From IMG/VR virus record IMGVR_UViG_3300044624_002142, positions 1 through 64,000 of that record: a stretch of DNA of 64,000 bases, one strand, 5' to 3'. Shown piece after piece: positions 1 to 63,613 of this stretch; positions within the stretch are counted from its first letter, which is position 1; every line of letters begins with the position of its first letter. The position numbers and the translations under genes were made by a program. This stretch comes from a virus. The notes under the pieces were generated by a model that was not told the origin of the DNA, made no database searches, and was given only the letters and a program-made list of their open reading frames with translations.

Positions 1-3000
1 ACATCTGGTACTTCGGGTACATCAGGCACAAGTGGTGAATCTGGTACTTCAGGTACATCCGGTACTTCAGGCACAAGTGGTGAATCTGGTACATCAGGTA
101 CGTCAGGTACATCAGGTACATCAGGTACTTCGGGTACATCAGGCACAAGTGGTGAATCTGGCACATCGGGTACGTCAGGCACAAGTGGTGAATCTGGCAC
201 ATCGGGTACGTCAGGTACATCAGGTACTTCGGGTACATCAGGCACAAGTGGTGAATCTGGTACTTCAGGTACATCCGGTACTTCAGGCACAAGTGGTGAA
301 TCTGGCACATCGGGTACGTCAGGTACATCAGGCACAAGTGGTGAATCTGGTACATCAGGTACTTCGGGTACATCAGGCACAAGTGGTGAATCTGGTACAT
401 CAGGTACTTCGGGTACATCAGGCACAAGTGGTGAATCTGGTACATCAGGTACTTCCGGCGAATCGGGTACATCGGGTGTAACTGGTACATCAGGTACTTC
501 GGGCACAAGTGGTACTTCAGGAACATCTGGTACATCTGGTACATCGGGTGAATCCGGTACAACTGGTCTTTCTGGTACATCGGGTCTTTCTGGTACATCG
601 GGTCTTTCTGGTACATCGGGTGGAAATGGAACATCAGGTACAAGTGGTGAATCTGGCACATCTGGTACTTCAGGCGAATCTGGTACATCCGGTACGTCAG
701 GTACATCAGGTACGTCGGGTGTCTCTGGTACATCAGGCACTTCAGGCGAATCTGGTACATCAGGTACTTCGGGTGAATCCGGTACATCGGGTACATCAGG
801 TACTTCAGGTACATCAGGTGTCGCTGGTACATCAGGTACTTCGGGCACGTCGGGTGTAGCTGGTACATCAGGTACTTCGGGTGAATCCGGTACATCGGGT
901 ACATCGGGTACATCCGGTACATCAGGTACTTCAGGTACATCAGGTGTAGCTGGTACATCAGGTACATCAGGTACATCAGGTGTCTCTGGTACTTCAGGTA
1001 CATCAGGTACTTCGGGTGAATCCGGTACATCGGGTACTTCAGGCACAAGTGGTACATCGGGTACATCAGGTACTTCGGGTGTAGCTGGTACATCCGGTAC
1101 ATCCGGTACATCCGGTACATCCGGTACATCCGGTACTTCAGGTGAATCCGGTACATCGGGTACATCAGGTACTTCAGGTACATCAGGTGTAGCTGGTACA
1201 TCCGGTACATCAGGTACTTCAGGTACATCAGGTGTCTCTGGTACATCAGGTACTTCGGGTGTAGCTGGTACATCCGGTACATCCGGTACATCCGGTACAT
1301 CGGGTACATCAGGTACTTCAGGTACATCAGGTGTAGCTGGTACATCCGGTACTTCGGGTGTAGCTGGTACATCCGGTACATCCGGTACTTCAGGTGAATC
1401 CGGTACATCGGGTACATCAGGTGTCTCTGGTACATCAGGTACTTCGGGTAGAGATGGTACATCCGGTACATCCGGTACATCCGGTACTTCAGGTGAATCC
1501 GGTACATCGGGTACATCAGGTACTTCGGGTACATCGGGTGCATCAGGTACATCAGGTACATCAGGTACATCAGGTACTTCAGGTACATCAGGTACTTCAG
1601 GTACATCAGGTGTCGCTGGTACATCAGGTACTTCAGGCACGTCGGGTGTAGCTGGTACATCGGGTACATCGGGTGAATCCGGTACATCGGGTACATCGGG
1701 TACATCAGGTACTTCAGGTACATCAGGTGTCTCTGGTACTTCGGGTACATCAGGTACTTCGGGTGTAGCTGGTACATCAGGTACTTCAGGTACATCAGGT
1801 ACTTCGGGTGAATCCGGTACATCGGGTACATCAGGTACTTCGGGTGTAGCTGGTACATCAGGTACAAGTGGTGAATCTGGCACATCTGGTACTTCAGGTG
1901 AATCTGGTACATCCGGTACGTCAGGTACATCAGGTACGTCGGGTGTCTCTGGTACATCAGGTACTTCAGGTACATCGGGTGTAGCTGGTACATCAGGTAC
2001 TTCGGGTACATCAGGTGTCGCTGGTACATCAGGTACTTCGGGTGAATCCGGTACATCGGGTACATCGGGTGCATCAGGTACTTCAGGTACATCAGGTGTC
2101 GCTGGTACATCAGGTACTTCAGGTACATCAGGTGTCGCTGGTACATCAGGTACTTCGGGTACATCAGGTGTCGCTGGTACATCAGGTACTTCGGGTACAT
2201 CAGGTGTCGCTGGTACATCAGGTACTTCGGGTGTAGCTGGTACATCAGGTACTTCGGGTGAATCCGGTACATCGGGTACATCGGGTACATCGGGTTCATC
2301 AGGTACTTCAGGTACTTCGGGCACGTCGGGTGTCTCTGGTACATCAGGTACTTCAGGTGAATCGGGTACATCAGGTACTTCGGGTGTAGCTGGTACATCA
2401 GGTACTTCGGGTGTAGCTGGTACATCAGGTACAAGTGGTACTTCAGGTACATCAGGCACAAGTGGTGAATCTGGTACTTCGGGTACATCAGGCACAAGTG
2501 GTGAATCTGGTACTTCTGGTACTTCAGGTCAGTCGGGTACATCAGGTACATCAGGTGTCGCTGGTACATCAGGTGTCGCTGGTACATCAGGTACTTCGGG
2601 TGTAGCTGGTACATCAGGTACTTCGGGTGTTGCTGGTACATCGGGTACTTCAGGTGTGGCAGGTACGTCAGGTACATCGGGTCAATCTGGAACATCAGGT
2701 ACTTCGGGCACAAGTGGTACATCAGGTCAATCCGGCACATCTGGTACATCGGGTACGTCAGGTGATGCTGGTACAAGTGGTACATCGGGTGTACAAGGTG
2801 CTCAAGGTGCGTCGGGTATTTCTGGTGGACAAAACTTCTTCTTAAATTCAAGTGTATCTCAAACACCGTCTCCATATAAACAACTTGGAAATCAAACAAC
2901 GGTTGCTTCTGAATTTACTCAATCAATCAATTTGGACGCACTTGAAGCTGATAAATTAGTTGTACAATATATTACTGATGTAGGAACACCAAATACTGTT

Positions 3001-6000
3001 GTAGTGCCAAATGGTATATGGCACGCTTACGTGTATTTTACAAAAGAAGCAACTAACCATGATGTTGAAACATATTTTAAAGTTTCTAAATATACCACCG
3101 GTAATGTTAAAACTTTATTGTTTACCAGTGATAGTAGCACAATTCCATATGATAGTGATATTGGTACAAATCCAGTAGAACTCAAAGTCAATGGTGTTGC
3201 TACGTCAGCAATATTGGATCCATCTGATCGATTGATATTTGAATTGTTTGTCACCAATCGTGATAATCACATTCGTACCGTCGTATTTTATACAGAAGGA
3301 ACCCAACATTATTCTTACGTTGTAACTACTATTAGTCAATCATCAGGTACTTCAGGTACTTCAGGTGTACAAGGTGCAAGTGGTACAAGTGGTACTTCGG
3401 GTGTACAAGGCGCAAGTGGTACAAGTGGTACTTCGGGTGCTCAAGGTGTAAGTGGTACATCAGGTACATCGGGTGTACAAGGCGCAAGTGGTACAAGTGG
3501 TACTTCGGGTGCTCAAGGTGTAAGTGGTACAAGTGGAACATCTGGTGAATCTGGTACAAGTGGAACGTCAGGTCAGTCGGGTACATCGGGTACATCAGGT
3601 CAGTCGGGTACATCCGGTACTTCAGGCACAAGTGGTGAATCTGGTACATCAGGTACATCAGGTACATCAGGTACATCGGGTGTCGCTGGTACATCAGGTA
3701 CTTCGGGTGTTCAAGGTGCAAGTGGTACATCAGGTACTTCGGGTGTTCAAGGTGCAAGTGGTACATCAGGTACTTCGGGTGTTCAAGGTGCAAGTGGTAC
3801 ATCAGGTACTTCGGGTGTTCAAGGTGCAAGTGGTACATCAGGTACTTCGGGTGTTCAAGGTGCAAGTGGTACAAGTGGTACTTCGGGTGTTCAAGGTGCA
3901 AGTGGTACAAGTGGTACTTCGGGTGCAGCTGGTACAAGTGGTACTTCGGGTGTTCAAGGTGCAAGTGGTACATCAGGTCAGTCGGGTACATCAGGTACAT
4001 CGGGTACATCGGGTACATCGGGTACATCAGGTACATCGGGTACATCAGGTACATCGGGTACATCGGGTACATCGGGCAGTTCTGGTACATCAGGCACAAG
4101 TGGTAGAGCTGGCACATCAGGCACAACTGGTACAAGTGGTACAAGTGGTACAAGTGGTACGTCGGGTAGAGCTGGTACCGCTGGTACATCGGGTGCAAGT
4201 GTTAGTGTAAGTGGAACTCTAAATACGTTGGTTAAACTTACTAGTGCTACTACGATTGGTAACACGACCACGCCTGTTTTTGAAACTGGTTCAAGAATTG
4301 CTATCGGTTCGTCTACAGTTCCGGATGGTACTTTGGATGTAACTAGTACACAAGCATCTGGATCGTCCGTGTTTAATGTTAAAGGTACCGCTGGATTACT
4401 ATTCAATGTATCTGATTCACTCAGTGGTAGTTTATTCTCTGTAAATAATATTACAGGATTGCCAATCGCAGAAGTGTTCAGTGATAACAGAGTTGTTTTG
4501 GGTGCTTATAACAAAAATGATTTAGTAATTAGTAGTAGTCGTACAGGTATTAACGTTGCTTCACCAACAGCTCAATTGCACGTAAGTGGTAGTGGTAGTG
4601 GTAGTTTGGCTACATTAAAACTAGAAGGACTTGTAAGTAACAATACCGGCTTCTATTTAACTGTAGACGATACTACAGGAGTTGTATATAAGACCGGTGG
4701 TGGTACTTCAGGCACTTCAGGTAGAGATGGTACTTCAGGTACATCAGGTAGAGATGGTACTTCGGGTACATCAGGCACCTCAGGTGTTTCTGGTACAAGT
4801 GGTACTTCGGGTACATCAGGTACATCAGGTACTTCGGGTGTTCAAGGTGCAAGTGGTACATCTGGTACATCAGGTGCGGGTTCTCCGGGTGGCAGTGGTT
4901 CATCTGGTACAACCGGTACATCGGGTGTTGCAGGTACTTCAGGTGTTCAAGGCGCAAGTGGTACATCAGGTACTTCGGGCGTACAAGGTGAATCTGGTAC
5001 ATCAGGTACTTCAGGTGTTCAAGGCGCAAGTGGTACATCAGGTACTTCGGGAGTCGATGGTACGTCAGGTACTTCGGGTACTTCAGGCGAATCTGGTACG
5101 TCAGGTACTTCGGGTACTTCAGGCGAATCTGGTACATCAGGTACGTCGGGTGTTTCTGGTACAAGTGGTACTTCAGGTACTTCAGGTACTTCAGGTACTT
5201 CAGGTGTAGCTGGTACATCAGGTACATCGGGTGCTGCTGGTACATCAGGTACTTCAGGTACTTCAGGTACATCGGGTGTAGCTGGTACATCAGGTACATC
5301 GGGTGTAGCTGGTACATCGGGTACTTCGGGTACATCAGGTACTTCAGGTGAATCGGGCACTTCAGGTACATCGGGTATTTCTGGTACATCAGGTACTTCA
5401 GGTACATCGGGTGTCGCAGGTACTTCGGGAACATCAGGTGTCGCAGGTACTTCAGGTACGTCCGGTACATCGGGTGTCGCTGGTACGTCAGGTACATCGG
5501 GTGTCGCAGGTACATCGGGTACATCGGGTACATCAGGTGAATCGGGCACTTCAGGTACATCGGGTATTTCTGGTACATCAGGTACTTCAGGTACATCGGG
5601 TATTTCTGGTACATCAGGTACTTCAGGTACATCGGGTGTCGCAGGTACTTCAGGTACGTCCGGTACATCGGGTGTCGCTGGTACGTCAGGTACATCGGGT
5701 GTCGCTGGTACGTCAGGTACATCGGGTGTCGCAGGTACATCGGGTACATCGGGTACATCGGGTACATCTGGTACATCTGGTACATCTGGTACATCTGGTA
5801 CATCTGGTACATCTGGTACATCTGGTACATCTGGTACATCAGGTACTTCGGGTGTAGCTGGTACATCAGGTACATCGGGTGTACAAGGCGCAAGTGGTAC
5901 AAGTGGAACATCGGGTGTACAAGGCGCAAGTGGTACAAGTGGAACATCGGGTGTACAAGGCGCAAGTGGTACAAGTGGTACAAGTGGAACATCGGGTGTA

Positions 6001-9000
6001 CAAGGTGCAAGTGGTACAAGTGGTACAAGTGGAACTTCGGGTGTACAAGGTGCAAGTGGTACAAGTGGTACAAGTGGAACATCGGGTGTACAAGGCGCAA
6101 GTGGTACAAGTGGAACCTCGGGTACATCGGGTGCAGCTGGTACAAGTGGTACTTCGGGTACGTCAGGTGTTGCTGGTACAAGTGGAACCTCGGGAACAAG
6201 TGGTACCGCTGGTACATCGGGTACAAGTGTTGCTGTAAGTGGAACTGCCAATACGTTGGTTAAATTTACTAGTGCTACTACGATTGGTAATACATCAACG
6301 CCGGTATTTGAGAGCGGTTCAAGAATTTCTATTGGTTATTCAGGAAGTAGTATAGACGGAACGTTAGATGTAACCAGTACACAAGCATCTGGATCATCTG
6401 TATTTAATGTTAAAGGCGTCAGCGGTACATTATTTAGTATTAGTGATACGCTCAGTGGTAGTTTGTTTGTTGTTAATAATATTTCAGGATTGCCAATCGC
6501 AGAAGTGTTCAGTGATAACAGAGTTGTTTTGGGTGCTTACAACAAAAACGACTTGGTAATCAGCAGTAGTCGTACAGGTATCAATGTTGCTTCTCCAACA
6601 TCTCAGTTGCACGTAAGTGGTAGTGGTTCGGGATCCACATTACGATTGGAAGGTCTCGTAAATAATAACACCGGCTTCTATTTGACAGTAGATAACGCTA
6701 CAGGTGCTGTATATAAGAGTAACGTCGGTTCCGCTGGTACATCGGGTGTATCAGGTACTTCGGGTACATCGGGTAGAGCTGGTACATCAGGTACTTCGGG
6801 TACAAGTGGAACCTCGGGTACATCAGGTACTTCAGGTGCTCAAGGTGCAGCCGGTACAAGTGGTACCTCAGGTGTTCAAGGCGCAACCGGTACAAGTGGT
6901 ACTTCGGGCGCTCAAGGCGCAATCGGTACAAGTGGTACTTCGGGTGCTCAAGGCGCAGCCGGTACAAGTGGTACTTCGGGTGCTCAAGGCGCAGCCGGTA
7001 CAAGTGGTACTTCGGGTGCTCAAGGCGCAGCCGGTACAAGTGGTACTTCGGGTGCTCAAGGCGCAGCCGGTACAAGTGGTACTTCGGGTGTAAATGGTAC
7101 ATCAGGTACATCGGGTGTAAATGGTACATCGGGTACATCAGGTAGAGATGGTACTTCGGGTACATCAGGTACATCTGGTAGAGATGGTACATCTGGTACT
7201 TCGGGTAGAGATGGTACATCGGGTACATCAGGTACATCAGGTACTTCGGGTACATCAGGTACATCAGGTACTTCGGGTACATCAGGTACATCTGGTACGT
7301 CAGGTACATCGGGTACGTCAGGTACAACTGGTACTTCAGGCACATCAGGTAGAGATGGTACTTCGGGTACATCAGGTACATCTGGTAGAGATGGTACATC
7401 TGGTACTTCGGGTAGAGATGGTACATCGGGTACATCAGGTACATCAGGTACATCAGGTACATCAGGTACATCGGGTACATCAGGTACATCTGGTACGTCA
7501 GGTACATCGGGTACATCAGGTACATCTGGTACCTCTGGTAAAGATGGTACTTCAGGCACTTCAGGTAGAGATGGTACTTCGGGTACATCAGGTAGAGATG
7601 GCACATCGGGTACATCAGGTACATCAGGTACATCAGGTACATCGGGTACGTCAGGTACATCTGGCACGTCAGGCACATCGGGTACATCAGGTACATCGGG
7701 TACATCGGGTACATCGGGTACATCGGGTACATCGGGTACATCAGGTACATCAGGTAGAGATGGTACTTCGGGTACATCAGGTACATCCGGTAGAGACGGT
7801 ACATCGGGTACATCAGGTACATCAGGTACATCGGGTACATCTGGTACATCGGGTACATCTGGTACATCAGGTACATCGGGTACATCAGGTACATCGGGTA
7901 CATCGGGTACATCGGGTATATCGGGTACATCAGGTACAGCTGGTACTTCTGGTAAAGATGGTACTTCAGGCACATCAGGTAGAGATGGTACTTCGGGTAC
8001 ATCAGGTACATCCGGTAGAGATGGTACATCAGGTACATCGGGTACATCAGGTACATCGGGTACATCAGGTACATCAGGTACTTCGGGTACATCAGGTACT
8101 TCGGGTACATCAGGTACATCGGGTACATCAGGTACAAGTGGTACATCGGGTGTCGCAGGTACTTCGGGTACATCAGGTAGAGATGGTACTTCGGGTACAT
8201 CAGGTAGAGATGGTACTTCGGGTACATCAGGTACATCCGGTAGAGACGGTACATCGGGTACATCGGGTACATCAGGTACATCAGGTACATCAGGTACATC
8301 TGGTACATCTGGTACATCAGGCACAAGTGGTACTTCGGGTACATCTGGTACATCTGGTACATCTGGTACATCGGGTACATCAGGTACATCAGGTACATCA
8401 GGTACAGCTGGTACTTCGGGCAGAGACGGTACATCAGGTACTTCTGGTACTTCAGGTAGAGACGGTACATCAGGTACAAGTGGTACATCAGGTACTTCGG
8501 GTACATCAGGTACATCGGGTACATCGGGTACATCAGGTACAAGTGGTACATCGGGTACATCGGGTACATCGGGTACGTCTGGTAAAGATGGTACCTCGGG
8601 TACATCAGGTACATCGGGTAGAGATGGTACGTCTGGTACTTCAGGTACATCAGGTACTTCTGGTAGAGACGGTACATCAGGTACAAGTGGTACATCAGGT
8701 ACAACTGGTACATCAGGTACATCAGGTACATCAGGTACAAGTGGTACATCAGGTACATCAGGTACATCGGGTACGTCAGGTACATCAGGTGCGTCAGGTA
8801 CATCAGGTACATCAGGTACATCAGGTACTTCGGGTAGAGATGGTACATCTGGTACATCAGGTACTTCTGGTAGAGACGGTACATCAGGTACTTCGGGTAC
8901 ATCAGGTACTTCGGGTACATCAGGTACATCGGGTACATCAGGTACTTCGGGTACATCAGGTACAAGTGGTACAAGTGGTACATCCGGTACTTCAGGAACA

Positions 9001-12000
9001 TCGGGTACATCAGGTACATCTGGTAAAGACGGTACATCAGGTACTTCGGGTACATCAGGCACTTCAGGTAGAGATGGTACATCAGGTACAAGTGGAACCT
9101 CGGGTACATCAGGTACAAGTGGTACATCTGGTACTTCGGGTACATCGGGTACGTCAGGTACATCAGGTACAACTGGTACTTCAGGCACATCAGGTACAAC
9201 TGGTACTTCAGGCACATCAGGTAGAGATGGTACATCTGGTACATCAGGTACTTCGGGTAGAGATGGTACATCTGGTACATCTGGTACATCAGGTAGAGAC
9301 GGTACATCAGGTACAAGTGGTACATCGGGTACATCTGGTACATCAGGTACATCCGGTACATCGGGTACATCAGGTACATCGGGTACATCAGGTACATCCG
9401 GTATTTCGGGTACTTCGGGTACGTCAGGTACTTCAGGTAGAGATGGTACATCAGGTACAAGTGGAACCTCGGGTACATCAGGTACAAGTGGTACAACTGG
9501 TACTTCGGGTACGTCAGGTACAAGTGGTACAACTGGTACTTCGGGTACGTCAGGTACAAGTGGTACATCCGGTACAAGTGGTACTTCGGGTACATCAGGT
9601 AAAGATGGCACTTCTGGTACGTCCGGTACTTCGGGTACTTCGGGTACTTCGGGTAGAGATGGTACATCAGGTACATCAGGTACATCAGGTACATCAGGTA
9701 CTTCGGGTACTTCGGGTACATCAGGTACATCGGGTACATCAGGCACTTCCGGTACAAGTGGTACAAGTGGCACATCCGGCACTTCTGGCACTTCCGGTAC
9801 AAGTGGTACATCAGGTACATCCGGCAGAGATGGTACGTCTGGTACTTCAGGTACTTCGGGTAGAGATGGTACATCCGGTACAAGTGGTACATCCGGTACA
9901 AGTGGTACATCCGGTACAAGTGGTACATCAGGTACATCGGGTACAAGTGGTACGTCTGGTACAACCGGTACAAGTGGTACTTCTGGTACAAGTGGTACAT
10001 CAGGTACAACTGGTACATCGGGTACGTCAGGTAGAGACGGCACATCAGGTACAAGTGGTACATCCGGCACAACTGGTACATCAGGTACAACTGGTACATC
10101 AGGTACAACTGGTACATCAGGTACAACTGGTACATCAGGTACATCAGGTACATCAGGTACATCAGGTACATCAGGTACATCAGGTGTAACTGGTACATCA
10201 GGTACTTCAGGTACATCGGGAACTTCAGGTAGAGACGGTACATCGGGAACTTCAGGTAGAGACGGTACATCAGGTACATCTGGTACGTCAGGTACATCGG
10301 GTACGTCAGGTACAAGTGGTACAACTGGTACTTCGGGTACGTCAGGTACAGGTGGTACAACTGGTACTTCGGGTACATCGGGTACATCGGGTACAAGTGG
10401 TACATCAGGTACAAGTGGTACATCAGGTACTTCAGGTACTTCAGGTAGAGACGGTACATCAGGTACAAGTGGCACATCTGGTACGACTGGCACATCGGGT
10501 ACAAGTGGTACAACTGGTACTTCGGGTACATCAGGTACATCAGGTACATCAGGTACAAGTGGTACTTCTGGTACATCAGGTACATCAGGTACAAGTGGTA
10601 CTTCTGGTACTTCAGGTAGAGACGGCACATCAGGTACTTCAGGTAGAGACGGTACATCAGGTACAAGTGGCACATCCGGCACTACTGGTACATCAGGTAC
10701 AACTGGTACATCGGGTACATCGGGTACATCAGGTACATCGGGTACATCGGGTACATCAGGTACATCAGGTACAAGTGGTACTTCGGGTACATCAGGTACA
10801 AGTGGAACCTCGGGTACGTCAGGTACGTCAGGTACTTCAGGTAGAGATGGTACATCGGGTACAAGTGGCACGTCCGGCACAACCGGTACATCAGGTACAT
10901 CCGGCACAACCGGTACATCAGGTACTTCGGGTACATCAGGCACAAGTGGTACTTCAGGTACATCAGGTACGTCAGGTACTTCGGGTACATCAGGTACTTC
11001 AGGTAGAGACGGTACATCAGGTACAAGTGGTACATCCGGTACAACTGGTACATCAGGTACAAGTGGTACGTCGGGTACAACTGGTACATCGGGTACATCA
11101 GGTACTTCGGGTACATCAGGCACAAGTGGTACTTCAGGTACATCAGGTACGTCAGGTACTTCGGGTACATCAGGTACTTCAGGTAGAGACGGTACATCAG
11201 GTACAAGTGGTACATCCGGTACAACTGGTACATCAGGTACAAGTGGTACGTCGGGTACAACTGGTACATCGGGTACATCGGGTACATCGGGTACATCAGG
11301 CACAAGTGGTACTTCGGGTACATCAGGCACAAGTGGAACCTCAGGTACATCAGGTACTTCAGGTACTTCGGGTAGAGATGGTACATCGGGTACAAGTGGC
11401 ACATCCGGCACAACCGGTACATCAGGTACTTCGGGTACATCAGGTACAACTGGTACATCAGGTACTTCGGGTACATCGGGCACAAGTGGTACTTCAGGTA
11501 CGTCAGGTACTTCGGGTACATCAGGTACATCAGGTACTTCAGGTAGAGATGGTACATCGGGTACAAGTGGTACATCCGGCACAACTGGTACATCAGGTAC
11601 AAGTGGTACGTCAGGTACAACTGGTACATCGGGTACATCGGGTACATCGGGTACATCAGGCACAAGTGGTACTTCGGGTACATCAGGCACAAGTGGAACC
11701 TCGGGTACATCAGGTACTTCAGGTACTTCAGGTAGAGATGGTACATCGGGTACAAGTGGTACATCCGGCACAACCGGTACATCAGGTACTTCGGGTACAT
11801 CAGGTACAACTGGTACATCAGGTACTTCGGGTACATCGGGCACAAGTGGTACTTCAGGTACGTCAGGTACATCAGGTACGTCAGGTACTTCGGGTACATC
11901 AGGTACATCAGGTACTTCAGGTACTTCAGGTAGAGATGGTACATCGGGTACAAGTGGTACATCCGGCACAACCGGTACATCAGGTACTTCGGGTACATCA

Positions 12001-15000
12001 GGTACATCAGGTACTTCGGGTACATCGGGCACAAGTGGTACTTCAGGTACGTCAGGCACATCAGGTACGTCAGGTACTTCGGGTACATCAGGTACATCAG
12101 GTACTTCAGGTACTTCAGGTAGAGATGGTACATCGGGTACAAGTGGTACATCCGGCACAACCGGTACATCAGGTACTTCGGGTACATCAGGTACATCAGG
12201 TACTTCGGGTACATCGGGCACAAGTGGTACTTCAGGTACGTCAGGTACAAGTGGTACATCAGGTACTTCGGGTACATCAGGTACTTCAGGTAGAGATGGT
12301 ACATCGGGTACAAGTGGTACATCCGGCACAACTGGTACATCAGGTACAAGTGGTACGTCAGGTACAACTGGTACATCGGGTACATCGGGTACATCAGGCA
12401 CAAGTGGTACTTCGGGTACATCAGGCACAAGTGGTACTTCGGGTACATCAGGCACAAGTGGAACCTCGGGTACATCAGGTACTTCAGGTACTTCAGGTAG
12501 AGATGGTACATCGGGTACAAGTGGTACATCCGGCACAACCGGTACATCAGGTACTTCGGGTACATCAGGTACATCAGGTACATCAGGTACTTCGGGTACA
12601 TCGGGCACAAGTGGTACTTCAGGTACGTCAGGCACGTCAGGTACTTCGGGTACATCAGGTACATCAGGTACTTCAGGTAGAGATGGTACATCGGGTACAA
12701 GTGGTACATCCGGCACAACTGGTACATCAGGTACTTCGGGTACATCAGGTACAACTGGTACTTCGGGTACATCGGGCACAAGTGGTACTTCAGGTACGTC
12801 AGGTACTTCGGGTACATCAGGTACATCAGGTACTTCAGGTAGAGATGGTACATCGGGTACAAGTGGTACATCCGGCACAACTGGTACATCAGGTACAAGT
12901 GGTACGTCAGGTACAACTGGTACATCGGGTACATCGGGTACATCAGGCACAAGTGGTACTTCGGGTACATCAGGCACAAGTGGTACTTCGGGTACATCAG
13001 GCACAAGTGGAACCTCGGGTACATCAGGTACTTCAGGTACTTCAGGTAGAGATGGTACATCGGGTACAAGTGGTACATCCGGCACAACCGGTACATCAGG
13101 TACTTCGGGTACATCAGGTACAACTGGTACATCAGGTACTTCGGGTACATCGGGCACAAGTGGTACTTCAGGTACGTCAGGTACATCAGGTACGTCAGGT
13201 ACTTCGGGTACATCAGGTACATCAGGTACTTCAGGTACTTCAGGTACTTCAGGTAGAGATGGTACATCGGGTACAAGTGGTACATCCGGCACAACCGGTA
13301 CATCAGGTACTTCGGGTACATCAGGTACTTCGGGTACATCAGGTACAACTGGTACATCAGGTACTTCGGGTACATCGGGCACAAGTGGTACGTCAGGTAC
13401 ATCAGGTACGTCAGGTACGTCAGGTACTTCGGGTACATCAGGTACTTCAGGTACTTCAGGTACTTCAGGTAGAGATGGTACATCGGGTACAAGTGGTACA
13501 TCCGGCACAACTGGTACATCAGGTACAAGTGGTACGTCAGGTACAACTGGTACATCGGGTACATCGGGTACATCGGGTACATCAGGCACAAGTGGTACTT
13601 CGGGTACATCAGGCACAAGTGGAACCTCGGGTACATCAGGTACATCAGGTACTTCAGGTACTTCAGGTAGAGATGGTACATCGGGTACAAGTGGTACATC
13701 AGGTACATCAGGTACGTCAGGTACTTCTGGTACATCGGGTACAAGTGGAACCTCGGGTACAAGTGGTACATCGGGTACAAGTGGTACAAGTGGTACATCA
13801 GGTACAAGTGGTACATCGGGTACATCGGGTACAAGTGGAACCTCGGGTACAAGTGGTACATCGGGTACAAGTGGAACTTCCGGTATAGATGGTCAAGTAG
13901 GAATGTTTGGCGGTAATTCAGTATTGTATAGATACGCAAGCGTAGCTAAGGATCCAGATTATTATCCAGTCTTCGCAGCAGAAGCATGTTTCCCAACTGC
14001 TTCGTTCGGTAGTGTTATTAACGTTGATTACAGATCAATGACTTTATATCCGCCAGGTGATTTTAGTATAACACCAACGACGAATGTAACAAAATGGTGG
14101 CAATCTGTATCGGCATCTGTGCCTGGATATTTAAGAGTCAGTCACGCTTTCAGTTCTAGTAGATTCGTAATCACTAAAGTTACATCCGTACAAGAGTTTG
14201 CATCTAGTCCGTTTGTAGGTTTCCAAATAACTGGTACTCCAGTTATGTCATCATCGATTGATCCATTCACCGACAATCTTGCTGAACCCGCTGATCGATT
14301 GGTTATGACATGGACAGCAAATGGTGCAAGTGGTACATCGGGTACATCGGGTACATCGGGTACATCGGGTACATCGGGTACATCGGGTACATCGGGTACA
14401 TCGGGTACATCGGGTACATCGGGTACATCGGGTACAAGTGGAACCTCAGGTACAAGTGGAACCTCAGGTACATCAGGTACAAGTGGTACATCGGGTACAA
14501 GTGGTACATCAGGTACAAGTGGTACATCGGGTACATCGGGTACATCGGGTACATCGGGTACATCGGGTACATCAGGTACATCAGGTACAAGTGGTACATC
14601 GGGTGCAGCAGGTCAGAACGCGTCTAACGTTATACAGTGGTTGTACGATACAAACATTCGTGATTCCGCTCCAAACGTAACAACTGTGGCTAGTGGTTCA
14701 GCCGGTGCCGTCAGTGGAAGTTTGTATATATCAGAATACTCATATCCATTTGTTGCTCCGGGAAATAATTATTTTGACTTATTTAATACAATAAATAACG
14801 TTAATAATCCTACAAAAGCAGTCGTTACAGTAACAGCAAAAGATGATCCTACAACATGGCAGATCTATAAAATTACTAGTGCTGCTTATTTTAATTTGAA
14901 AAGATATTGGGTTTTCGGTATCACTGGTCTTGGATCTGGTAATGGAGATAATACATGGGGTACTGTTCAGAATTTGACATTTAGTTTCTCTGGTGAATCT

Positions 15001-20638: not shown

Positions 20639-23600
20639 ATGCCAATTACAGAAGGGGGTACATTTACTCCACATAATCCAATAGTGAGTCCGGGCGTTTT
20701 TAGTCGTGAAAACGACCTATCAGGTCTCGCTCAGGGTGTTGCTGATATTGGTGGAGCAATTGTCGCTCCCTTTCCAAAGGGACCGGGTTTTGCTCCAACA
20801 GTTGTCACCAGCGTTGCTGAGTTAGAAGAAAAATTTGGTGTAGCGGACGGAGTATATTACGGTCCTTACACTGCTAAACAATATCTACAAGAACAAGGTC
20901 TTGTGACTGTGTGTCGTGTAGGTGCGTTAACAGGTTACGAACAAGATAATCCGTTTGTGATTTACGCAATTCCGGGTTATTATAATCGTGCCACCGAAAG
21001 TGGTTCATTTACCGCTTTGGGAACTGCTGATTCATCATATATTGCTCTTGATCCTGATGATATCATGGTCAATATTCAATATGTCAGTTCTAGTGCAACT
21101 GAAACATTGACGATTACTGGTAGTTTGTACGCAAACTTTGAAACCAGTTCATTCTCAGTGTACAACCCACCGGGAACACCAGGCAACAAGACATATACCA
21201 CTCGTTACATCGGTGATGTACATTTTACATTTGATGCTGCGCACTTTGAAATCAGTTCAAGTTATCAAGGTGACGGATCACTTAGTGCAGATGCTAAGTT
21301 GTTGCGTGCTCTTGCTGAACAAACCGGAAAGTTCTCTGGAAGTTTGGCAACAAGCAGCAGTTTGGTTAAGTTGAGTGATGATTTCCCTGTGTCTGGTACC
21401 GCATCTGAAGTTATTATCAATAACATCAGTTTTGCTAAATATCGTCCAGCTAATAGCTGTGGTGTTCAAATTCAATTGACATGTAACATTAGCGGTAGTT
21501 TTGGTAAATACACTTCATTTGTTGAAACTACGGTTTCTGGTGGAGATCCTTGTAATGATGGTGTTGCTCGTGAGTCTATAGTTTTAGCTGTATTGGCAAA
21601 TACACAAAATGCAGCCATTCAATCTGATGCCAATAACAAATTGGCACAAGTTGTATATGGATTTGAGGGTTCTGCTTTAAGTAAGAAGATTGCAACATCA
21701 GGATTGTACAGTGGTAGTATTGATCCGACCGCACAAGACTTTGTTCTTGATTTGCGTTATAACATCGGTGGTACAAGTGGAAGTTACGGAATCTATGAAT
21801 TCTCATTGGATCCAGCAAGTTCTAATTATATTACCAACGTGTTTGGATCTGATCCAACTGCTGGTGATCCAGCAAAACAAGTTGCTGGTCAAAAGATTGA
21901 AGCTGCTTATTTATATAAGATCTTCAAGGATACAATTGGACGTATTGTTCAAGAAGCAACAGATCCATCTGATGGATGGTTGATTGTTGGTAGTTCAGCT
22001 CCATATGTTCCATCTGGGGGTGCAAATGAACTTACCTTTAATGGTAATCCAATGAAGTTTACTGACGACTACGGTTACGCACCAACAACTGGTGATAGTG
22101 ATTTTAGTTTGAAGTGGGCATCAACACCTTGGATTAACTCACAACAAGTTGCACCATTTACTGGTACATCAGATGTAACTGCACAACCACAACGTTTCCC
22201 ATTATTCCGTGTTCACACTCTTGCTGACGGAACCAATATGAACACGTCATACAAGATCGAAATCAGTGATGTAAAACTCGCTGGTACCGTTACTGGTAGT
22301 GATTATGGTTCATTTACATTGGCAGTACGTAAGTTTAGTGATACTGATAAGAATCCTAAGTATTTGGAACGTTTCCAAAACTTGAATCTTGATCCTGATA
22401 GCAGCAACTTCATTGCTCGTCGTATTGGTGATCGTTACAACTATATTTCTTACTCCGGTAAGATTATTGAGTTTGGTACGTATTCCAATTTGAGTAAGAA
22501 TATTCGTATTGAAATGACCGAGAACGTGTATCCAATATCAGCAGTTCCTTACGGATTTGATGCTCTTGCTACACCACTTGGTGGTAACGTCGGTGGATAT
22601 TTGCCACCAGTTCAATTCAGTCGCGCATCAACATATTCAACTGCTCCGGGTAGATATCCATCTGGTATTGTATTCGGTGAACCACCAATTGGTGCAGCTG
22701 ATGATTTGTTGGCATTGTATCCTACATCATCACTTGGTGTATACAGTGTATATAACGACAATATTCAATACTTTGCTCCATTGCCTTCTTATGAAGGATT
22801 TAGTTCAATTGGCAACAATGTTGTATTTGACCTTGAAACAGGTGATACATACAATCCAGTTGGTTCTAAACAACCAGATGTTCAAAACGACAGTGCTGGT
22901 ATTCCATCAACTTATGACGCTGCATACGAATCAACCCGTGTGAAGATGCGTAAGTTTATACTTGGATTCCAAGGTGGATTTGATGGTCAATCACCAGCAA
23001 TTCCAATCAACGTTGGATCTGATATCATTCCAGGCAACACGCAAGGTTTGAACTGTACTAGTATTACAAGTCCAGGCAGTATTGCTTACAGACAATGTAT
23101 TGGTGCACTAGGTAATGCTGACGAGTTTGATATTAACTTGATTGTGACTCCGGGTATCTTCTATCAACACCACAGTTATGTGGCACAGTTGACAATTGAT
23201 ATGTGTGAAGCACGTGGTGATTGTTTCTATATCATGGATAACGTGGTATTCCCTAAGAGCAATCAAAGCGTTGGATTGATTGATGCTGCTATTAATGTGG
23301 CTGCTACAATTGACAGCAGTTACGTTGCTACATACTATCCATGGGTCAAGATTCTTGATACCAATTTGAACAAGATTGTTAGTGTTCCACCATCAGTTGT
23401 TCTACCTGCTATCTACGCAGCAAACGATAAAGCATCTGCTGAATGGTTTGCTCCAGCTGGTTTAAACCGTGGTGGTATTACACAAGCAGTTCAAGTGTTG
23501 GATCGTTTGACACACGGTGAACGTGATACCCTCTATGAAGGTCGTGTGAACCCAATTGCAGCATTCCCCGGTCAGGGTATCTGTGTATGGGGTCAAAAAA

Positions 23601-23944
23601 CTCTTCAAATTGCCCCAAGTGCATTGGATCGTATCAATGTTCGTCGTTTGATGATCAACTTGAAGAAGTTTATTGCTTCAAGTTCACGTTTCTTGATTTT
23701 CGAACAGAACGTCGCAAATACACGTAACCGTTTCTTGAGTATTGTAAATCCTTACCTTGAACAGGTTCAACAACGTAGTGGTGTGTACGCTTTCCAAGTG
23801 AAGATGGATGAAACAAATAATACACCTGATTTGATTGATAGAAATATCCTTTATGGTCAAATCTTCCTACAACCAACCAAGACTGCTGAATTCATTATTC
23901 TTGATTTCAACATCTTGCCTACGGGTGCATCGTTCGGTGCTTAA
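20639..23944 (+). CDS. Contractile tail sheath protein (T4 gp18-like)
   Basis: N-terminal SPGVFSRENDLS. C-terminal YYPWV, WFAPAGLNRG, VNPI..FPGQG..VWGQKTLQ, ALDRINVRRL and IFLQPTKTAEFIILDF. Confidence 0.96.
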   Translation: MPITEGGTFTPHNPIVSPGVFSRENDLSGLAQGVADIGGAIVAPFPKGPGFAPTVVTSVAELEEKFGVADGVYYGPYTAKQYLQEQGLVTVCRVGALTGYEQDNPFVIYAIPGYYNRATESGSFTALGTADSSYIALDPDDIMVNIQYVSSSATETLTITGSLYANFETSSFSVYNPPGTPGNKTYTTRYIGDVHFTFDAAHFEISSSYQGDGSLSADAKLLRALAEQTGKFSGSLATSSSLVKLSDDFPVSGTASEVIINNISFAKYRPANSCGVQIQLTCNISGSFGKYTSFVETTVSGGDPCNDGVARESIVLAVLANTQNAAIQSDANNKLAQVVYGFEGSALSKKIATSGLYSGSIDPTAQDFVLDLRYNIGGTSGSYGIYEFSLDPASSNYITNVFGSDPTAGDPAKQVAGQKIEAAYLYKIFKDTIGRIVQEATDPSDGWLIVGSSAPYVPSGGANELTFNGNPMKFTDDYGYAPTTGDSDFSLKWASTPWINSQQVAPFTGTSDVTAQPQRFPLFRVHTLADGTNMNTSYKIEISDVKLAGTVTGSDYGSFTLAVRKFSDTDKNPKYLERFQNLNLDPDSSNFIARRIGDRYNYISYSGKIIEFGTYSNLSKNIRIEMTENVYPISAVPYGFDALATPLGGNVGGYLPPVQFSRASTYSTAPGRYPSGIVFGEPPIGAADDLLALYPTSSLGVYSVYNDNIQYFAPLPSYEGFSSIGNNVVFDLETGDTYNPVGSKQPDVQNDSAGIPSTYDAAYESTRVKMRKFILGFQGGFDGQSPAIPINVGSDIIPGNTQGLNCTSITSPGSIAYRQCIGALGNADEFDINLIVTPGIFYQHHSYVAQLTIDMCEARGDCFYIMDNVVFPKSNQSVGLIDAAINVAATIDSSYVATYYPWVKILDTNLNKIVSVPPSVVLPAIYAANDKASAEWFAPAGLNRGGITQAVQVLDRLTHGERDTLYEGRVNPIAAFPGQGICVWGQKTLQIAPSALDRINVRRLMINLKKFIASSSRFLIFEQNVANTRNRFLSIVNPYLEQVQQRSGVYAFQVKMDETNNTPDLIDRNILYGQIFLQPTKTAEFIILDFNILPTGASFGA

Positions 23945-23963
23945 TTAAAGTAACCGATTAATC

Positions 23964-23996
23964 AAAACCTCACCTAGAAATAGGTGGGGTTTTTTT
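23964..23996 (+). terminator. Intrinsic terminator after the sheath gene
   Basis: AAAACCTCACCTA-GAAA-TAGGTGGGGTTTTTTT hairpin followed by a U-tract. Confidence 0.88.
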
Positions 23997-24035
23997 ATTT
24001 AAAAAATAATTTTACAATTCTAGTTTTTTATACTA

Positions 24036-24043
24036 TATTTATA
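24036..24043 (+). promoter_or_regulatory. TATTTATA putative late promoter
   Basis: Octamer 28 nt upstream of ATG 24072. Confidence 0.5.
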
Positions 24044-24071
24044 GTATATCATAGTAACACCATGACAATAT

Positions 24072-25859: not shown

Positions 25860-25862
25860 CTC

Positions 25863-25893
25863 AAACCTCACCTATTTCTAGGTGAGGTTTTTT
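25863..25893 (+). terminator. Intrinsic terminator; near-perfect inverted copy of 23964-23993
   Basis: AAACCTCACCTA-TTTC-TAGGTGAGGTTTTTT. Confidence 0.88.
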
Positions 25894-25926
25894 GTTTTGT
25901 ATTGCTGTATATTGATATTTATATAT

Positions 25927-26139: not shown

Positions 26140-26220
26140 TTGATTATTGCGCAGCAATGCTTATAGGTAATTTCTCACATTGTCAAGATCTTATTGAATT
26201 TTCTTGATATTTATACTCAA

Positions 26221-26847: not shown

Positions 26848-26848
26848 T

Positions 26849-27535: not shown

Positions 27536-27564
27536 GATTTTTAGAAAAAATCGAAAACTAAAAC

Positions 27565-59976: not shown

Positions 59977-60631
59977 ACTTTATATTGGAATATCAGGAGT
60001 AGCAAGATCTGGAAAAAATCTGTTTTGCGACATTTCTAAGAAAATTATATCTGAAAAATATGGATTGACATGTAGTTCATATGCACTTGCATTTTCTTTA
60101 AAGAACGATTGTAAAGAGTTTGTCAAAGATAAATTGGGATTGGATGTATTTACAGAAGAGACTGAAGAAAAAAAGATCTTTAGAGAAATGCTTGTTTGGT
60201 ATGGTGATGTCAAACGTAAACAATCACATGGACGGTATTGGACTGAAAAGCTTCAATCTGAAATGGAAAAGGATGATTCTGATGTTATTTTTATAACTGA
60301 CATACGTTATAACTTTTATCCTAAAGATGAGGTATATTGGATCAACAATGATTTGAACGGTAAGTTGATTCACATATCAAAATACACATATGGTTTCCCT
60401 ACTGATGGTAGACGTATTCGTGGTGATATTGCTAATACAAATCAAAAGATTTGGGTAGAACCTGTCAATGATCATGAACGATGGAACGATCCGAAGGTTA
60501 AGGCTGAAGCTGATTATGTTGTCGAATGGCCTCATGTAAAATCAGAAGGTAAAACTTATCAAGATATAATTAATGATGATCAATTAAATAAGATAATATC
60601 ACCTATATATGAACGTATATTTTCCGTATGA
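59966..60631 (+). CDS. Deoxynucleoside monophosphate kinase-like protein (T4 gp1-like)
   Basis: IGISGVARSGKN, A..LK, R..L..YG...R and ITDIRY. Confidence 0.75.
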   Translation: MKNKLYIGISGVARSGKNLFCDISKKIISEKYGLTCSSYALAFSLKNDCKEFVKDKLGLDVFTEETEEKKIFREMLVWYGDVKRKQSHGRYWTEKLQSEMEKDDSDVIFITDIRYNFYPKDEVYWINNDLNGKLIHISKYTYGFPTDGRRIRGDIANTNQKIWVEPVNDHERWNDPKVKAEADYVVEWPHVKSEGKTYQDIINDDQLNKIISPIYERIFSV

Positions 60632-61470
60632 AAGGTATTATTTTATCAGGCGGTACAGGATCTAGGTTATATCCATTGACAACAGTTGTTAATAAACAAT
60701 TGTTGCCGGTATATGATAAACCGATGATTTATTATCCACTATCAACATTAATTTCTTGTGGAATCAAAGATATTTGCATCATATCATCATATGATTTTCT
60801 TCCATTGTACCAAAAGTTATTTGGTGATGGTGAACATTTAGGATTGAATCTGACCTACAAGGTACAACCAAAACCGGATGGTATTGCACAATCGTTTTTG
60901 ATTGCTGAAGACTTTATTGGTAACGACAGTGTTTGTTTGATTTTGGGTGACAATGTGTTTCACGGATTCAACCGTATGAAGGTCGATTTCACCGGTGCGG
61001 TAATATTTGCTTATAAAGTAAACAATCCTCAAGAATATGGTGTAATTGAGTTTGATTCTAACGGCAAAGCGTTGTCTATTGAAGAGAAACCAAAGATGCC
61101 TAAAAGCAAATATGCGGTTCCTGGCCTATATTTTTACGACAATAATGTAATTGAATATTCTAGAATATTGAAACCTTCCAAACGTGGTGAATATGAGATC
61201 ACCGATATCAACCGTAGATATATGGAAGAGGGGAATTTGAATGTAGTAAAAATGCCAAAAGGTACGGTTTGGTTGGATGCAGGGTCACCAACAACATTGG
61301 GACAAGCAAGTAATTATGTACAGACTGTACAAGACCGTCAAGGATGTAAAATTGCATGTATTGAAGAAGAGTGTTTAAATCAAAAATTTATCGATCAAAC
61401 ACAATTTGTTAAATTGATAGAAAAAACGCCAAAATCGGAATATAGAAATTATTTAGAATCTGTCATATGA
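60628..61470 (+). CDS. rmlA: Glucose-1-phosphate thymidylyltransferase
   Basis: GIILSGGTGSRLYPLT, KQLLPVYDKPMIYYPL, LILGDN, EEKP, GLYFYD and RGEYEITD. Confidence 0.96.
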   Translation: MKGIILSGGTGSRLYPLTTVVNKQLLPVYDKPMIYYPLSTLISCGIKDICIISSYDFLPLYQKLFGDGEHLGLNLTYKVQPKPDGIAQSFLIAEDFIGNDSVCLILGDNVFHGFNRMKVDFTGAVIFAYKVNNPQEYGVIEFDSNGKALSIEEKPKMPKSKYAVPGLYFYDNNVIEYSRILKPSKRGEYEITDINRRYMEEGNLNVVKMPKGTVWLDAGSPTTLGQASNYVQTVQDRQGCKIACIEEECLNQKFIDQTQFVKLIEKTPKSEYRNYLESVI

Positions 61471-61485
61471 TATATATGAACAGTT

Positions 61486-62352
61486 ATGATTTTACTATTA
61501 GGCGCATCTGGTTATATTGGCCACGAATTCAATAAACAATTATTTCAAAACGGTCTTCCAGTTAGAACGTGTTCAACTCCTACCAAGGAGTTGACGTATA
61601 CTCATTTGGATCTGTTACATAAAACATTAAAGTTAACAACTATAGTTAACTGTGCTGGATATACAGGCAAACCAAATGTGGATGCTTGTGAAACTGATAA
61701 ACACAATACCATTTATGGAAACGTTGTAGTTCCAGAGATGTTATCAATATTTTGCCGTAACAACGGAATTTTACTTGGACATGTATCGTCTGGGTGTATT
61801 TATACAGGACGTAGATCAGATGGTACGCCATTCACTGAAAACGACCGTCCAAACTTTAGTTTTGAACAAAACAATTGTAGTTTTTATAGCGGAACTAAAG
61901 CACTTGCTGAGGATGTCATTCGACACAATTGGGGCAATCATTATATTTGGAGACTACGTATTCCATTTGAAGAAAAACACAATCCTCGAAACTATTTGTC
62001 CAAGATGTTGAATTATAAGAAACTTTTGGATGCTGAAAACTCTATATCTAATAAACAAGATTTTGTTAACGCTTGTGTACAAACTCTTGTTAAAAAGGTT
62101 CCATACGGAACATATAATGTTACAAATACTGGTTTTGTGACTACTAAACAAGTTATTGAAAAGATGCAAAAAACAATTGCTAAAGACAAGATCTTTGAGT
62201 TTTTTGACAATGAAGATGACTTTTATAAAACGGCTGTAAAAACACCACGTTCAAACTGTGTGATGAGTAATCAAAAGTTGTTGAATGTGGGAATTAAAAT
62301 GAGAACCGTGGATGAAGCATTGGATAATTGTTTAGAAAATTGGAAAGAATAA
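61486..62352 (+). CDS. NDP-4-keto-6-deoxyglucose reductase, RmlD / NRS-ER-like SDR
   Basis: GASGYIG, AGYTGKPNVDACE, SSGCIY, SFYSGTK (YxxxK) and RLRIP. Confidence 0.82.
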   Translation: MILLLGASGYIGHEFNKQLFQNGLPVRTCSTPTKELTYTHLDLLHKTLKLTTIVNCAGYTGKPNVDACETDKHNTIYGNVVVPEMLSIFCRNNGILLGHVSSGCIYTGRRSDGTPFTENDRPNFSFEQNNCSFYSGTKALAEDVIRHNWGNHYIWRLRIPFEEKHNPRNYLSKMLNYKKLLDAENSISNKQDFVNACVQTLVKKVPYGTYNVTNTGFVTTKQVIEKMQKTIAKDKIFEFFDNEDDFYKTAVKTPRSNCVMSNQKLLNVGIKMRTVDEALDNCLENWKE

Positions 62353-62353
62353 T

Positions 62354-63613
62354 ATGAAATACACTGAAAAAGTTAAAAGTTGTAGAGTATCAAATGACCC
62401 ATTGGTTTCATTGTTTACTTTAGGCGATTTGTTTATATCAAACTTTCTCAAGGACCAACCATCGGATGACTATAGGTCGGAAATGAAATTGATGTATTCT
62501 CCTACATCAAAGTTGGTTCAGTTGGAACAAGGCGCAGATCCTAACAAAATGTATGGCCAATATTGGTACCGTTCCGGTACGAATCAGACGATGCGTAATC
62601 AACTTAAGAACGTGGTTGATAGTTGTATGATGGTTCATACTCCAACTGATAATCCACTATGGTTAGATATTGCGTGTAATGATGGAACATTGTTGAGTTA
62701 TGTACCATCACCATATTCACGTTTGGGTATTGATCCCGCCGACGATTCTTATACCAAAGAAAGTGTTAAATTTGCTGATCAAGTAGTTCAGGAGTATTTT
62801 TCAAAGAATACGTTTGATCGAAGTATTTTTAAAGGACGAAAGTGTGATGTGATTACATGTATCGCAATGTTTTATGATCTTCCGGATCCAGTTGCTTTTC
62901 TAAATGATGTATATGATGTGTTACACGATGAAGGTTTGTTTGTAGTACAAATGAGTTATACGCCGTTGATGGTTCAACAAATGGCATTTGACAATATTTG
63001 TCATGAACATTTGATGTATTACTCGTTACATTCATTTAAACATGTTATAGAAAAAGCCAAGTTTAAGATTGTAGATTGTGAGTTGAATGATGTTAATGGT
63101 GGATCTTTCCGAGTATACTTACAGAAAGATATTGCTAAGGTTACATCATTTGCAACTGCTCCATACCGTGATGTTGCACGTTATCGTATTAACTCTACTT
63201 TGGAGTATGAAAACAAGATTGGAGCAAATACAGTTGAGTTTTATATGAATTTCTATAAGAAACTTCAGGAGTTGAAGGAAAAAACATATAACTTTATCAA
63301 ACAAGAAAAAGAAAAGGGTAAGAGCATTTGGGTCTATGGCGCATCAACCAAGGGAAATACTCTTCTTCAATATTTTGGATTGGATAAGACTTTGATTGAT
63401 GGTGCAGCAGAACGTAGTCCATATAAGTTTGGACTAAAGACTGTGGGAACTGATATTACAATTTATTCCGAACAAGATATGAGAAAGGCTAACCCAGATT
63501 ATCTTTTGATATTGCCATGGCATTTCATTGATGAATTCAAGAGACGTGAGGCTCCATATCTAATGAGTGGAGGTCATTTTATTGTACCTTGTCCTGTATT
63601 TGAAATTGTATGA
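62354..63613 (+). CDS. SAM-dependent NDP-hexose C-methyltransferase-like protein
   Basis: Y.YRSG, LDIACNDGTLL, FDNICHEHLMYYS, NGGS, YGASTKGNTLL and ILPWHF. Confidence 0.88.
   Translation: MKYTEKVKSCRVSNDPLVSLFTLGDLFISNFLKDQPSDDYRSEMKLMYSPTSKLVQLEQGADPNKMYGQYWYRSGTNQTMRNQLKNVVDSCMMVHTPTDNPLWLDIACNDGTLLSYVPSPYSRLGIDPADDSYTKESVKFADQVVQEYFSKNTFDRSIFKGRKCDVITCIAMFYDLPDPVAFLNDVYDVLHDEGLFVVQMSYTPLMVQQMAFDNICHEHLMYYSLHSFKHVIEKAKFKIVDCELNDVNGGSFRVYLQKDIAKVTSFATAPYRDVARYRINSTLEYENKIGANTVEFYMNFYKKLQELKEKTYNFIKQEKEKGKSIWVYGASTKGNTLLQYFGLDKTLIDGAAERSPYKFGLKTVGTDITIYSEQDMRKANPDYLLILPWHFIDEFKRREAPYLMSGGHFIVPCPVFEIV

Follow-up and report, generated by a model that had tools for sequence, protein, structure and literature searches.

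The exosporium of Bacillus anthracis contains BclA, a trimeric protein with a jelly-roll head and a Thr-rich Gly-X-Y filament that is O-glycosylated within the repeat. The length of this filament is set by the number of repeats, which amount to tens of triplets with Pro in the X position (GPT), and the known collagen-like segments of phages are also tens of triplets long and rich in Pro or in charged residues. EPclA, from prophages of Escherichia coli O157, is an example of a collagen-like phage fibre as described in PMC3368898. The first 64,000 nucleotides (nt) of the IMG/VR virus record IMGVR_UViG_3300044624_002142 (from here on, the window) contain a giant collagen-like open reading frame (ORF) of at least 5,275 amino acids (aa), located at 1..15828 on the + strand and followed by two glycosyltransferase genes (GT1 and GT2). 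The ORF includes a tract of 799 Gly-X-Y triplets that is uninterrupted and devoid of Pro, and an even chance is given here to the reading that its product is a trimeric, collagen-like, O-glycosylated fibre of the virion, in which the tract would be the longest rod of one giant modular protein.

An earlier note on this DNA, made from the letters alone, had described the tract as some 800 unbroken, proline-free triplets at 6727-13900, composed almost entirely of GTS, GTT, GRD and GKD. The count and the composition hold (799 triplets, 2,397 residues, 0 Pro; 667 + 45 + 51 + 5 = 768 of the 799 triplets, respectively), as does the start, and only the end had to be moved, 17 nt further to 13917. The remaining 31 triplets, mainly GAQ, GAA, GVN and GIS, are located at the two ends of the tract. 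When the residues of the complete ORF were shuffled 1000 times, the longest run in register was of 6.7 triplets on average and never of more than 12, against the 799 observed, and the Pfam Collagen profile (PF01391) gives 1001.9 bits on the tract (cut-off 27.2), which therefore shows both the Gly at every third residue and the score of this family. The underlying DNA is composed of diverged units, with 73-76% matches at periods of 18, 27, 180 and 207 nt according to Tandem Repeats Finder (TRF). When each position of the 799 units was scored against the consensus unit GGT ACA TCA, the first two positions of the Gly codon did not vary in any of them (0 and 0), while its wobble position varied in 88, the three positions of the X codon in 23, 69 and 225, and those of the Y codon in 224, 168 and 485. 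Because the first two Gly positions are invariant while wobble, X and Y positions change, the register has been conserved and not merely copied, a sign of purifying selection that keeps Gly in every third place, X and Y being tolerant to change.

The charged triplets of the tract (GRD and GKD) are spaced by 3-24 triplets, and by about 18-24 in its second half. The 56 marks overlap at zero shift, and when the pattern is displaced by up to 200 triplets, no more than 14 of them do so; the pattern thus defines a single best register for three identical chains, and it may work as a register code. Polyproline-II bundles are built in another way, from Gly-X-X strands of only some 10-13 residues that are connected through turns. 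The earlier note had left room for a polyproline-II bundle. The tract would then double back repeatedly and form a bundle of polyproline-II or polyglycine-II type, like those of the snow-flea antifreeze protein or of Gly-rich phage adhesin tips, which it would resemble in its Gly at every third residue, its small polar side chains and its lack of Pro. However, neither a register break nor any loop-like element is present in 2,397 residues, far beyond the turn spacing of 10-13, so that a bundle is not favoured and appears highly improbable.

The ORF is open in frame 1 from base 1 to a stop codon at 15826-15828 and has no start codon in view, its 5' end having been lost at the contig start, inside a GTS repeat. 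It contains 1551 Gly, 1358 Ser, 1353 Thr and 37 Pro among 5275 residues. Scanning for stretches with Gly at every third residue resolved it into eight Gly-X-Y runs (1,467 triplets in total) and six globular spacers (D1 to D6). The first run, of 314 triplets (aa 3-944, nt 7..2832), is truncated upstream by the contig start, contains 233 GTS, 29 GES and 26 GVA but no Pro, and matches Pfam Collagen with 431 bits. It is followed by D1 (aa 945-1115, nt 2833..3345), a run of 95 triplets (aa 1116-1400, nt 3346..4200), D2 (aa 1401-1567, nt 4201..4701), two runs, of 20 and of 149 triplets, between which the register breaks for 2 residues (aa 1568-1627 and 1630-2076, nt 4702..6228), D3 (aa 2077-2242, nt 6229..6726), which is a paralogue of D2 (83% identity), and the 799-triplet run (aa 2243-4639, nt 6727..13917). 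Beyond it lie D4 (aa 4640-4774, nt 13918..14322), a run of 33 triplets of which 30 are GTS (aa 4775-4873, nt 14323..14619), D5 (aa 4874-4997, nt 14620..14991), two runs of 35 and 22 triplets (aa 4998-5102 and 5105-5170, nt 14992..15510) and the C-terminal globular domain D6 (aa 5171-5275, nt 15511..15825), all on the + strand. The DNA of the 33-triplet run repeats a 9-nt unit in tandem almost perfectly (GGTACATCG, 30 copies at 14332-14604, 82% matches), whereas the units of the long tract have diverged, and it may be a recent expansion. Long ORFs in other frames or on the opposite strand over the repeat region are shadows of the repeat, and no other Gly-X-Y ORF is present elsewhere in the 134-kb contig. 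A tblastn search of the C-terminal 636 aa against phages, with the low-complexity filter on, gave no match.

At the textbook rise of about 0.286 nm per residue, a collagen helix of 799 triplets would measure about 0.69 µm and one of 1,467 triplets about 1.26 µm, while tape-measure proteins span about 0.15 nm of tail per residue. These values reproduce the lengths calculated in the earlier note and give a tail of about 141 nm, against its roughly 140 nm; the ORF starting at 29696 does encode a 941-aa protein that matches tape-measure families (phrog_58, E 5e-16). The length of the tract rests on one metagenome assembly, and the exact figure of 799 is unverified, a point to be held against the proposed fibre, although the gene itself is real. 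It is somewhat unlikely, but no more than that, that this figure is an assembly product and that the true run differs substantially, having been collapsed, expanded or re-ordered. The contig starts inside the giant gene, and the same is true of the three closest relatives (L009-L011), whose contigs begin inside their own collagen-like ORF; there are 22 exact repeat pairs of at least 100 nt (the longest of 303 nt, mostly at 10.9-13.5 kb), and 1,194 of 15,702 127-mers are non-unique. Mis-joins between 9-nt units would preserve the frame, hence the open frame proves nothing. Logan contigs from four runs, compared over 2500-7900, reproduce the globular parts at 2600-3393, 4131-4730 and 6138-6828 without difference in three of the four runs, and break in every Gly-X-Y tract, with many joints connecting repeat copies, so they are uninformative on tract length. 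On the other hand, the divergence of the units (73-76%) provides unique words over most of the tract, 55-mers being unique at 12,612 of 15,774 positions, and a relative (G001, a 298,833-b contig rated 100% complete by CheckV) carries a complete counterpart of 5,316 aa (139610-155557, minus strand), located upstream of its own glycosyltransferase pair and containing 669 GTS among 1,420 triplets. The order of magnitude of the length is therefore independently reproduced.

The G001 protein differs in the way its runs are interrupted. The gaps between them are of exactly 3 residues in 152 of 168 cases. Those of them that were inspected are triplets in which Ala replaces Gly (as in GVS-ATS-GTS); they recur at intervals of 8-11 triplets and leave the register intact on both sides. 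The window tract has no such pattern. The longest unbroken run in G001 is of 109 triplets, which makes the 799 of the window an extreme case. Prokaryotic collagen-like chains of up to about 2,000 triplets are reported in PMC11923368, and the total length found here is thus not unprecedented, although an unbroken, proline-free run of 799 triplets is unusual.

The globular domains link the ORF to fibre proteins of phage type. With D3 as query, a full HMMER scan retrieved 2,632 representative clusters at E<=1e-3; many of the proteins carry the domain more than once, the longest such chain having 4,072 aa. From the 150 matches listed, 25 were fetched, of which 21 short ones were used in an alignment and four were scanned against Pfam; two of these four end in a Peptidase_S74 domain and one has a Collagen match. 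D3 is thus a common building block within the chains of giant fibre proteins of phage type. Peptidase_S74 is a chaperone that serves trimeric fibres and spikes; in the giant ORF itself, Pfam scans of the whole sequence and of D1-D6 detected no trimerisation domain or S74-type chaperone. The AlphaFold2 (AF2) model of D1, built from a 9-sequence alignment (pLDDT 79.5, pTM 0.81), is a jelly-roll beta-sandwich, whose closest matches are the C-terminal domain of CocE in Foldseek (TMq about 0.7) and 8yzn (VIA Z 13.4); it is also near carbohydrate-binding modules (CBM) of families 15 and 35 (Z about 8.5), while TNF matches were weak. Judging from the model, D1 would be a jelly roll like those of carbohydrate-binding modules or of the C-terminal domain of CocE-type hydrolases. 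Its relatives are found in seven other phage collagen-like ORFs and in locus L050; the ORFs bearing them come from large phage contigs, are proline-poor and contain GTS, GSS, GNQ/GTQ or GLQ triplets in runs of up to 236. None of the six domains matched Pfam at E<=5, and against PHROGs only D1 gave a hit (phrog_8766, E 0.003), so that D4 and D5 are without any family match. The sole relative found for D6 is the C-terminus of the collagen-like ORF of L009 (43%), and none appeared among proteins of 185-2000 aa at E<=1e-3. Look-alikes in the Atlas were viral hypothetical proteins only, PF26696 (PTL_trimer, at 0.88) being an unconfirmed lead. PHROG tail-fibre families match the giant protein with E values down to 8e-123, through the repeat only, and the gene lies 4.8 kb upstream of the sheath, tube, hub and tape-measure genes. 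Its N-terminus was cut off by the contig start; in the G001 counterpart, the N-terminal 130 aa gave only weak PHROG fibre matches that extend into the repeat.

If the product is a fibre, three chains would most likely associate into a collagen-type triple helix, with the globular knobs and the irregularly spaced GRD/GKD marks nucleating the helix and holding its register, and the whole protein would resemble a flexible thread of over 1 µm set with beads. A triple helix is the most economical explanation for the Gly register, the in-register breaks of G001, the membership of D2 and D3 in a fibre family that includes S74 chaperones, and the Pfam and PHROG matches. Several features of the protein weigh against it. 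Stable triple helices are rich in imino acids (Pro or hydroxyproline), and the tract has none in 2,397 residues; it also lacks Y-Gly-X charge pairs (KGE/KGD), its charges being placed within one triplet (X=R, Y=D), and the marks of the 314-triplet run are only acidic (GES). Pairs of this type are described in PMC11923368 as stabilising clamps that are enriched in long collagens. In addition, the N-terminal anchor lies outside the contig, and the place of the protein on the virion (tail, neck or head) is only presumed. The lack of Pro, together with a Ser+Thr content of 60% (672 Ser in the tract) and the two multi-domain glycosyltransferases that adjoin the gene, would also suit a mucin-like thread or brush, extended and densely O-glycosylated, whose chains are single or only loosely associated and are stiffened by their sugars, Gly being no more than a flexible spacer that bears no sugar, and unglycosylated Thr-rich collagen peptides are random coils according to PMC11923368. 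Nevertheless, a spacer does not need a Gly without exception in 799 units whose wobble bases diverge, nor does it explain the in-register Gly-to-Ala breaks of G001 or the occurrence of the knob family together with the chaperone of trimeric fibres in two of the four carriers tested, all of which makes a thread without triple helix distinctly unlikely. For the trimeric fibre, the lack of Pro suggests instead that the helix would probably be stabilised by O-linked sugars; in this respect, (Gly-Pro-Thr)10 is reported in PMC11923368 to fold only once its Thr residues carry galactose, being a random coil before.

Candidate enzymes for this modification are encoded by the next two genes. GT1 (819 aa, 15861..18320, + strand), which matches Pfam Glycos_transf_1, begins 32 nt past the fibre stop. 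Its AF2 model is confident over residues 9-668 and has an N-terminal GT4-type GT-B fold, for which Foldseek retrieved HepE, BshA, PimB' and WaaG with E values of about 3e-11. A second confident alpha/beta domain plus a beta-sandwich, without Pfam match, is modelled at aa 336-668, while residues 669-819 are modelled with low confidence and are covered by few relatives. GT2 (698 aa, 18323..20419, + strand; Pfam GT1/GT4/GT9) comprises a GT4 domain followed by a domain of the TibC/Aah O-heptosyltransferase type at aa 333-690. This domain scores 335.2 bits on TIGR04414 (equivalog cut-off 200), covering positions 6-373 of the 374 of the profile, and aligns to TibC (PDB 4RAP) over residues 24-387 with an E value of 8e-70. 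With the numbering and roles of TibC residues taken from PMC4358343, GT2 keeps all four Cys of the iron finger (339, 342, 358 and 370), the catalytic base Asp110 and three of the four sugar-binding residues (Thr226, Lys230 and Trp305). A scan of 13900-21000 for promoters and terminators gave nothing above shuffled sequences.

The known substrates of TibC are beta-helices and not Gly-X-Y proteins, and the neighbour expected of the bacterial autotransporter heptosyltransferase (BAHT) family, an autotransporter, was not seen among the ORFs of the window, its place being taken by the Gly-X-Y protein. These differences count against glycosylation of the fibre by a TibC-type reaction, as do two substitutions in GT2, the fourth sugar-binding residue (Arg286) being Thr and the stereo-selector for heptose (Pro300) being Gly, and the finding of no genes of the GmhA (PF13580) or HldE (PF01467) type in the 134-kb fragment (43% of the genome). 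Given the two substitutions, the donor of GT2 may be a sugar other than ADP-heptose. Three tightly packed genes at 60628..63613 (+ strand), in a group continuing towards the window end, encode an RmlA-like nucleotidyltransferase, an RmlD-like reductase and a nucleoside diphosphate (NDP)-sugar C-methyltransferase, which suggests that the phage could make its own, possibly branched, deoxysugar. It is possible that these genes supply the donor for the fibre, a link that is only presumed. The TibC family comprises protein Ser O-glycosyltransferases and TibC itself modifies Ser and not Thr, according to PMC4358343. Gene order and the function of the family suggest that glycosylation of the fibre would take place during infection, inside the host cell, and would be the work of GT1 and GT2: the TibC-type domain would act on the Y-position Ser of each triplet, and the GT4 domains would prime or extend the glycan. 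The stronger claim, that the TibC-type enzyme with its fused GT4 domain moves along the chain as it is being made, places a sugar on nearly every Y Ser and thereby enables a proline-free (Gly-Thr-Ser)n helix, about 0.7 µm long without a break and over 1.2 µm overall, has to be regarded as doubtful.

The distribution of the enzyme pair only in part follows that of such fibres. A scan with GT1 found 77 viral loci, in 73 of which GT2 adjoins GT1; 33 of the loci were aligned and the upstream genes of eight were checked against PHROGs. The order collagen-like ORF, GT1, GT2 and sheath is common to L009-L011, but a Gly-X-Y ORF lies directly upstream in only 8 of the 77 (L009-L011, L049, L050, L052, L055 and L071), and the remaining 69 have none there. 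In most relatives the pair stands beside unrelated genes; in the six such loci that were checked, the upstream gene encodes a Hoc-like protein with Ig domains, a protease or a nuclease resembling SbcC. Moreover, a CheckV-complete 321-kb relative has the pair and no run of four GTS triplets, the pattern that was searched. Glycosylation, one of the two options left by the earlier note, thus gains strong support from its gene context, which the note did not cite, and is weakened by the occurrence of the same pair in relatives without a GTS tract. These data would agree with enzymes acting on phage DNA, on host envelope glycans or on other virion proteins, in which case the fibre would be unglycosylated and its helix held by hydration, GRD pairs and knobs. 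In related phage groups, such glycosyltransferases are read as modifiers of lipopolysaccharide (LPS) or DNA, the reading favoured in PMC7029224 and PMC12619734. A Ser/Thr-rich (30%) Hoc-like Ig-domain protein is encoded upstream of the pair at L013 (4277-6100) and L085 (7883-9955), and proteins of this kind are an alternative candidate surface substrate.

A target other than the fibre is nevertheless unlikely, given that TIGR04414 is a family of protein Ser O-glycosyltransferases, that GT1 starts so close to the fibre stop, and that the TibC-like domain occurs in only 4 of 50,697 GenBank phage records, of which three are distinct and two of these three have GTS/GSS runs within 20 kb. The first is the cultured Microcystis phage Mel-JY01 (PP395634.1), where the + strand has an ORF (2..3052) that is already open as the record begins. 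This ORF encodes at least 1,016 aa, contains 202 triplets (77 GTS, 57 GSS, 18 GTR and 13 GTD; longest run 149) and ends 1.7 kb before a 1,226-aa enzyme with a C-terminal TibC-like domain; the collagen-like gene of this phage probably wraps around the record ends. The Mel-JY01 record annotates minus-strand hypothetical proteins at 1-651 and 739-2298, opposite the Gly-X-Y ORF, whose translations are rich in Pro, Val and Glu and look like shadow ORFs. The second, a 735-kb phage, has two short GSS/GTS runs at 5-6.5 kb from the domain, and the third, a 636-kb phage, has no Gly-X-Y run within 20 kb, which again speaks against a strict association.

The source of the window is a linear virus contig of 134,428 b from an uncultured jumbo myovirus, 43% complete by CheckV. 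In a metagenome survey the phage was contained in 20 lake-water runs belonging to 20 coded studies. Its assignment as a large myovirus follows from the genes for a tail sheath (1,101 aa, 20639-23944), a tail tube (from 27597), a baseplate hub (from 28579) and the tape measure, after which genes for replication and nucleotide metabolism are found further along the window. An HNH/homing endonuclease (595 aa, 24072-25859; phrog_3339, E 4e-107) separates the sheath and tube genes, with a counterpart in L009 and none detected in L010 and L011. The sheath shares 82-86% identity with those of L009-L011, and its closest relatives among GenBank phages are those of Mel-JY01 (44%) and of an uncultured 484-kb phage. 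Megablast of 15861-35155 against phages gave no match, and a tRNA gene scan of the whole contig found none, so the fragment provides no phage-supplied tRNAs for Gly, Thr or Ser. For a phage of lake water, it is plausible but speculative that the thread would be a long-reach adhesion line on the virion, whose CBM-like knobs would raise the capture of hosts in dilute water.

In comparison with BclA, the window protein is devoid of Pro, has Thr in X and Ser in Y and reaches 799 triplets in one run; it also carries several knobs within the chain, belongs to a phage and is accompanied by an enzyme of the TibC type, and no sequence relation between the two is claimed. The phage families PHROG 1806 ('collagen like minor tail'), phrog_6320 and phrog_5073 resemble it in having Gly-X-Y segments in fibres, from which it differs in being 10 to 50 times longer than the known examples and in lacking Pro. 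The TibC-TibA and Aah-AIDA-I pairs of E. coli have in common with the window a family enzyme encoded beside a long, repetitive, Ser-rich surface fibre, whereas GT2 is unlike TibC and Aah in being fused behind a GT4 domain, in belonging to a phage, in the changes of Arg286 to Thr and Pro300 to Gly, and in its presumed Gly-X-Y substrate. Mycobacteriophage glycosyltransferases are known to decorate their own virion proteins (Freeman et al. 2023, as cited in PMC12619734); there, the sugars are placed on the C-terminal ends of tail-tube and capsid subunits by enzymes of other types than TibC, and none of the substrates is collagen-like.

Each of the elements is already known: phage fibres with collagen-like segments, spore filaments that are both collagen-like and glycosylated, and the glycosylation of virions. 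Collagen with glycosylated Thr occurs in a few animals and in spores. Full-text literature searches did not find a proline-free (Gly-Thr-Ser)n rod of this length together with a TibC-family enzyme in a phage, and a search on the name Mel-JY01 returned no paper. What goes beyond the known systems is the lack of Pro, the nearly 800 unbroken triplets and the TibC-family enzyme encoded 2.5 kb downstream (about 3.5 kb for the TibC domain). If the proposed fibre is correct, it would provide a two- or three-gene system (fibre, GT1 and GT2) for minimal triple-helix chemistry, with Mel-JY01 as an available cultured relative; virion glycosylation would extend to a new enzyme family, with a suggestion of how large phages widen their capture radius in dilute water, and for work on biomaterials a collagen without proline, stabilised by sugars and of programmable length, would be attractive. 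If the stronger claim of a sugar on nearly every Y Ser also held, the rod would be among the longest of collagen type known, and a natural microbial proof that glycosylated Ser or Thr can replace hydroxyproline. A parallel in this respect is the cuticle collagen of the vent worm Riftia, which is about a micrometre long. Its threonine is glycosylated (Mann et al. 1996, as cited in PMC11923368), so that a sugar on a hydroxy amino acid takes the place of hydroxyproline as stabiliser, as would be the case in the phage fibre; it differs in coming from an animal, in having Pro in X followed by Thr in Y, and in that its sugar was demonstrated by experiment, whereas that of the phage protein is deduced.

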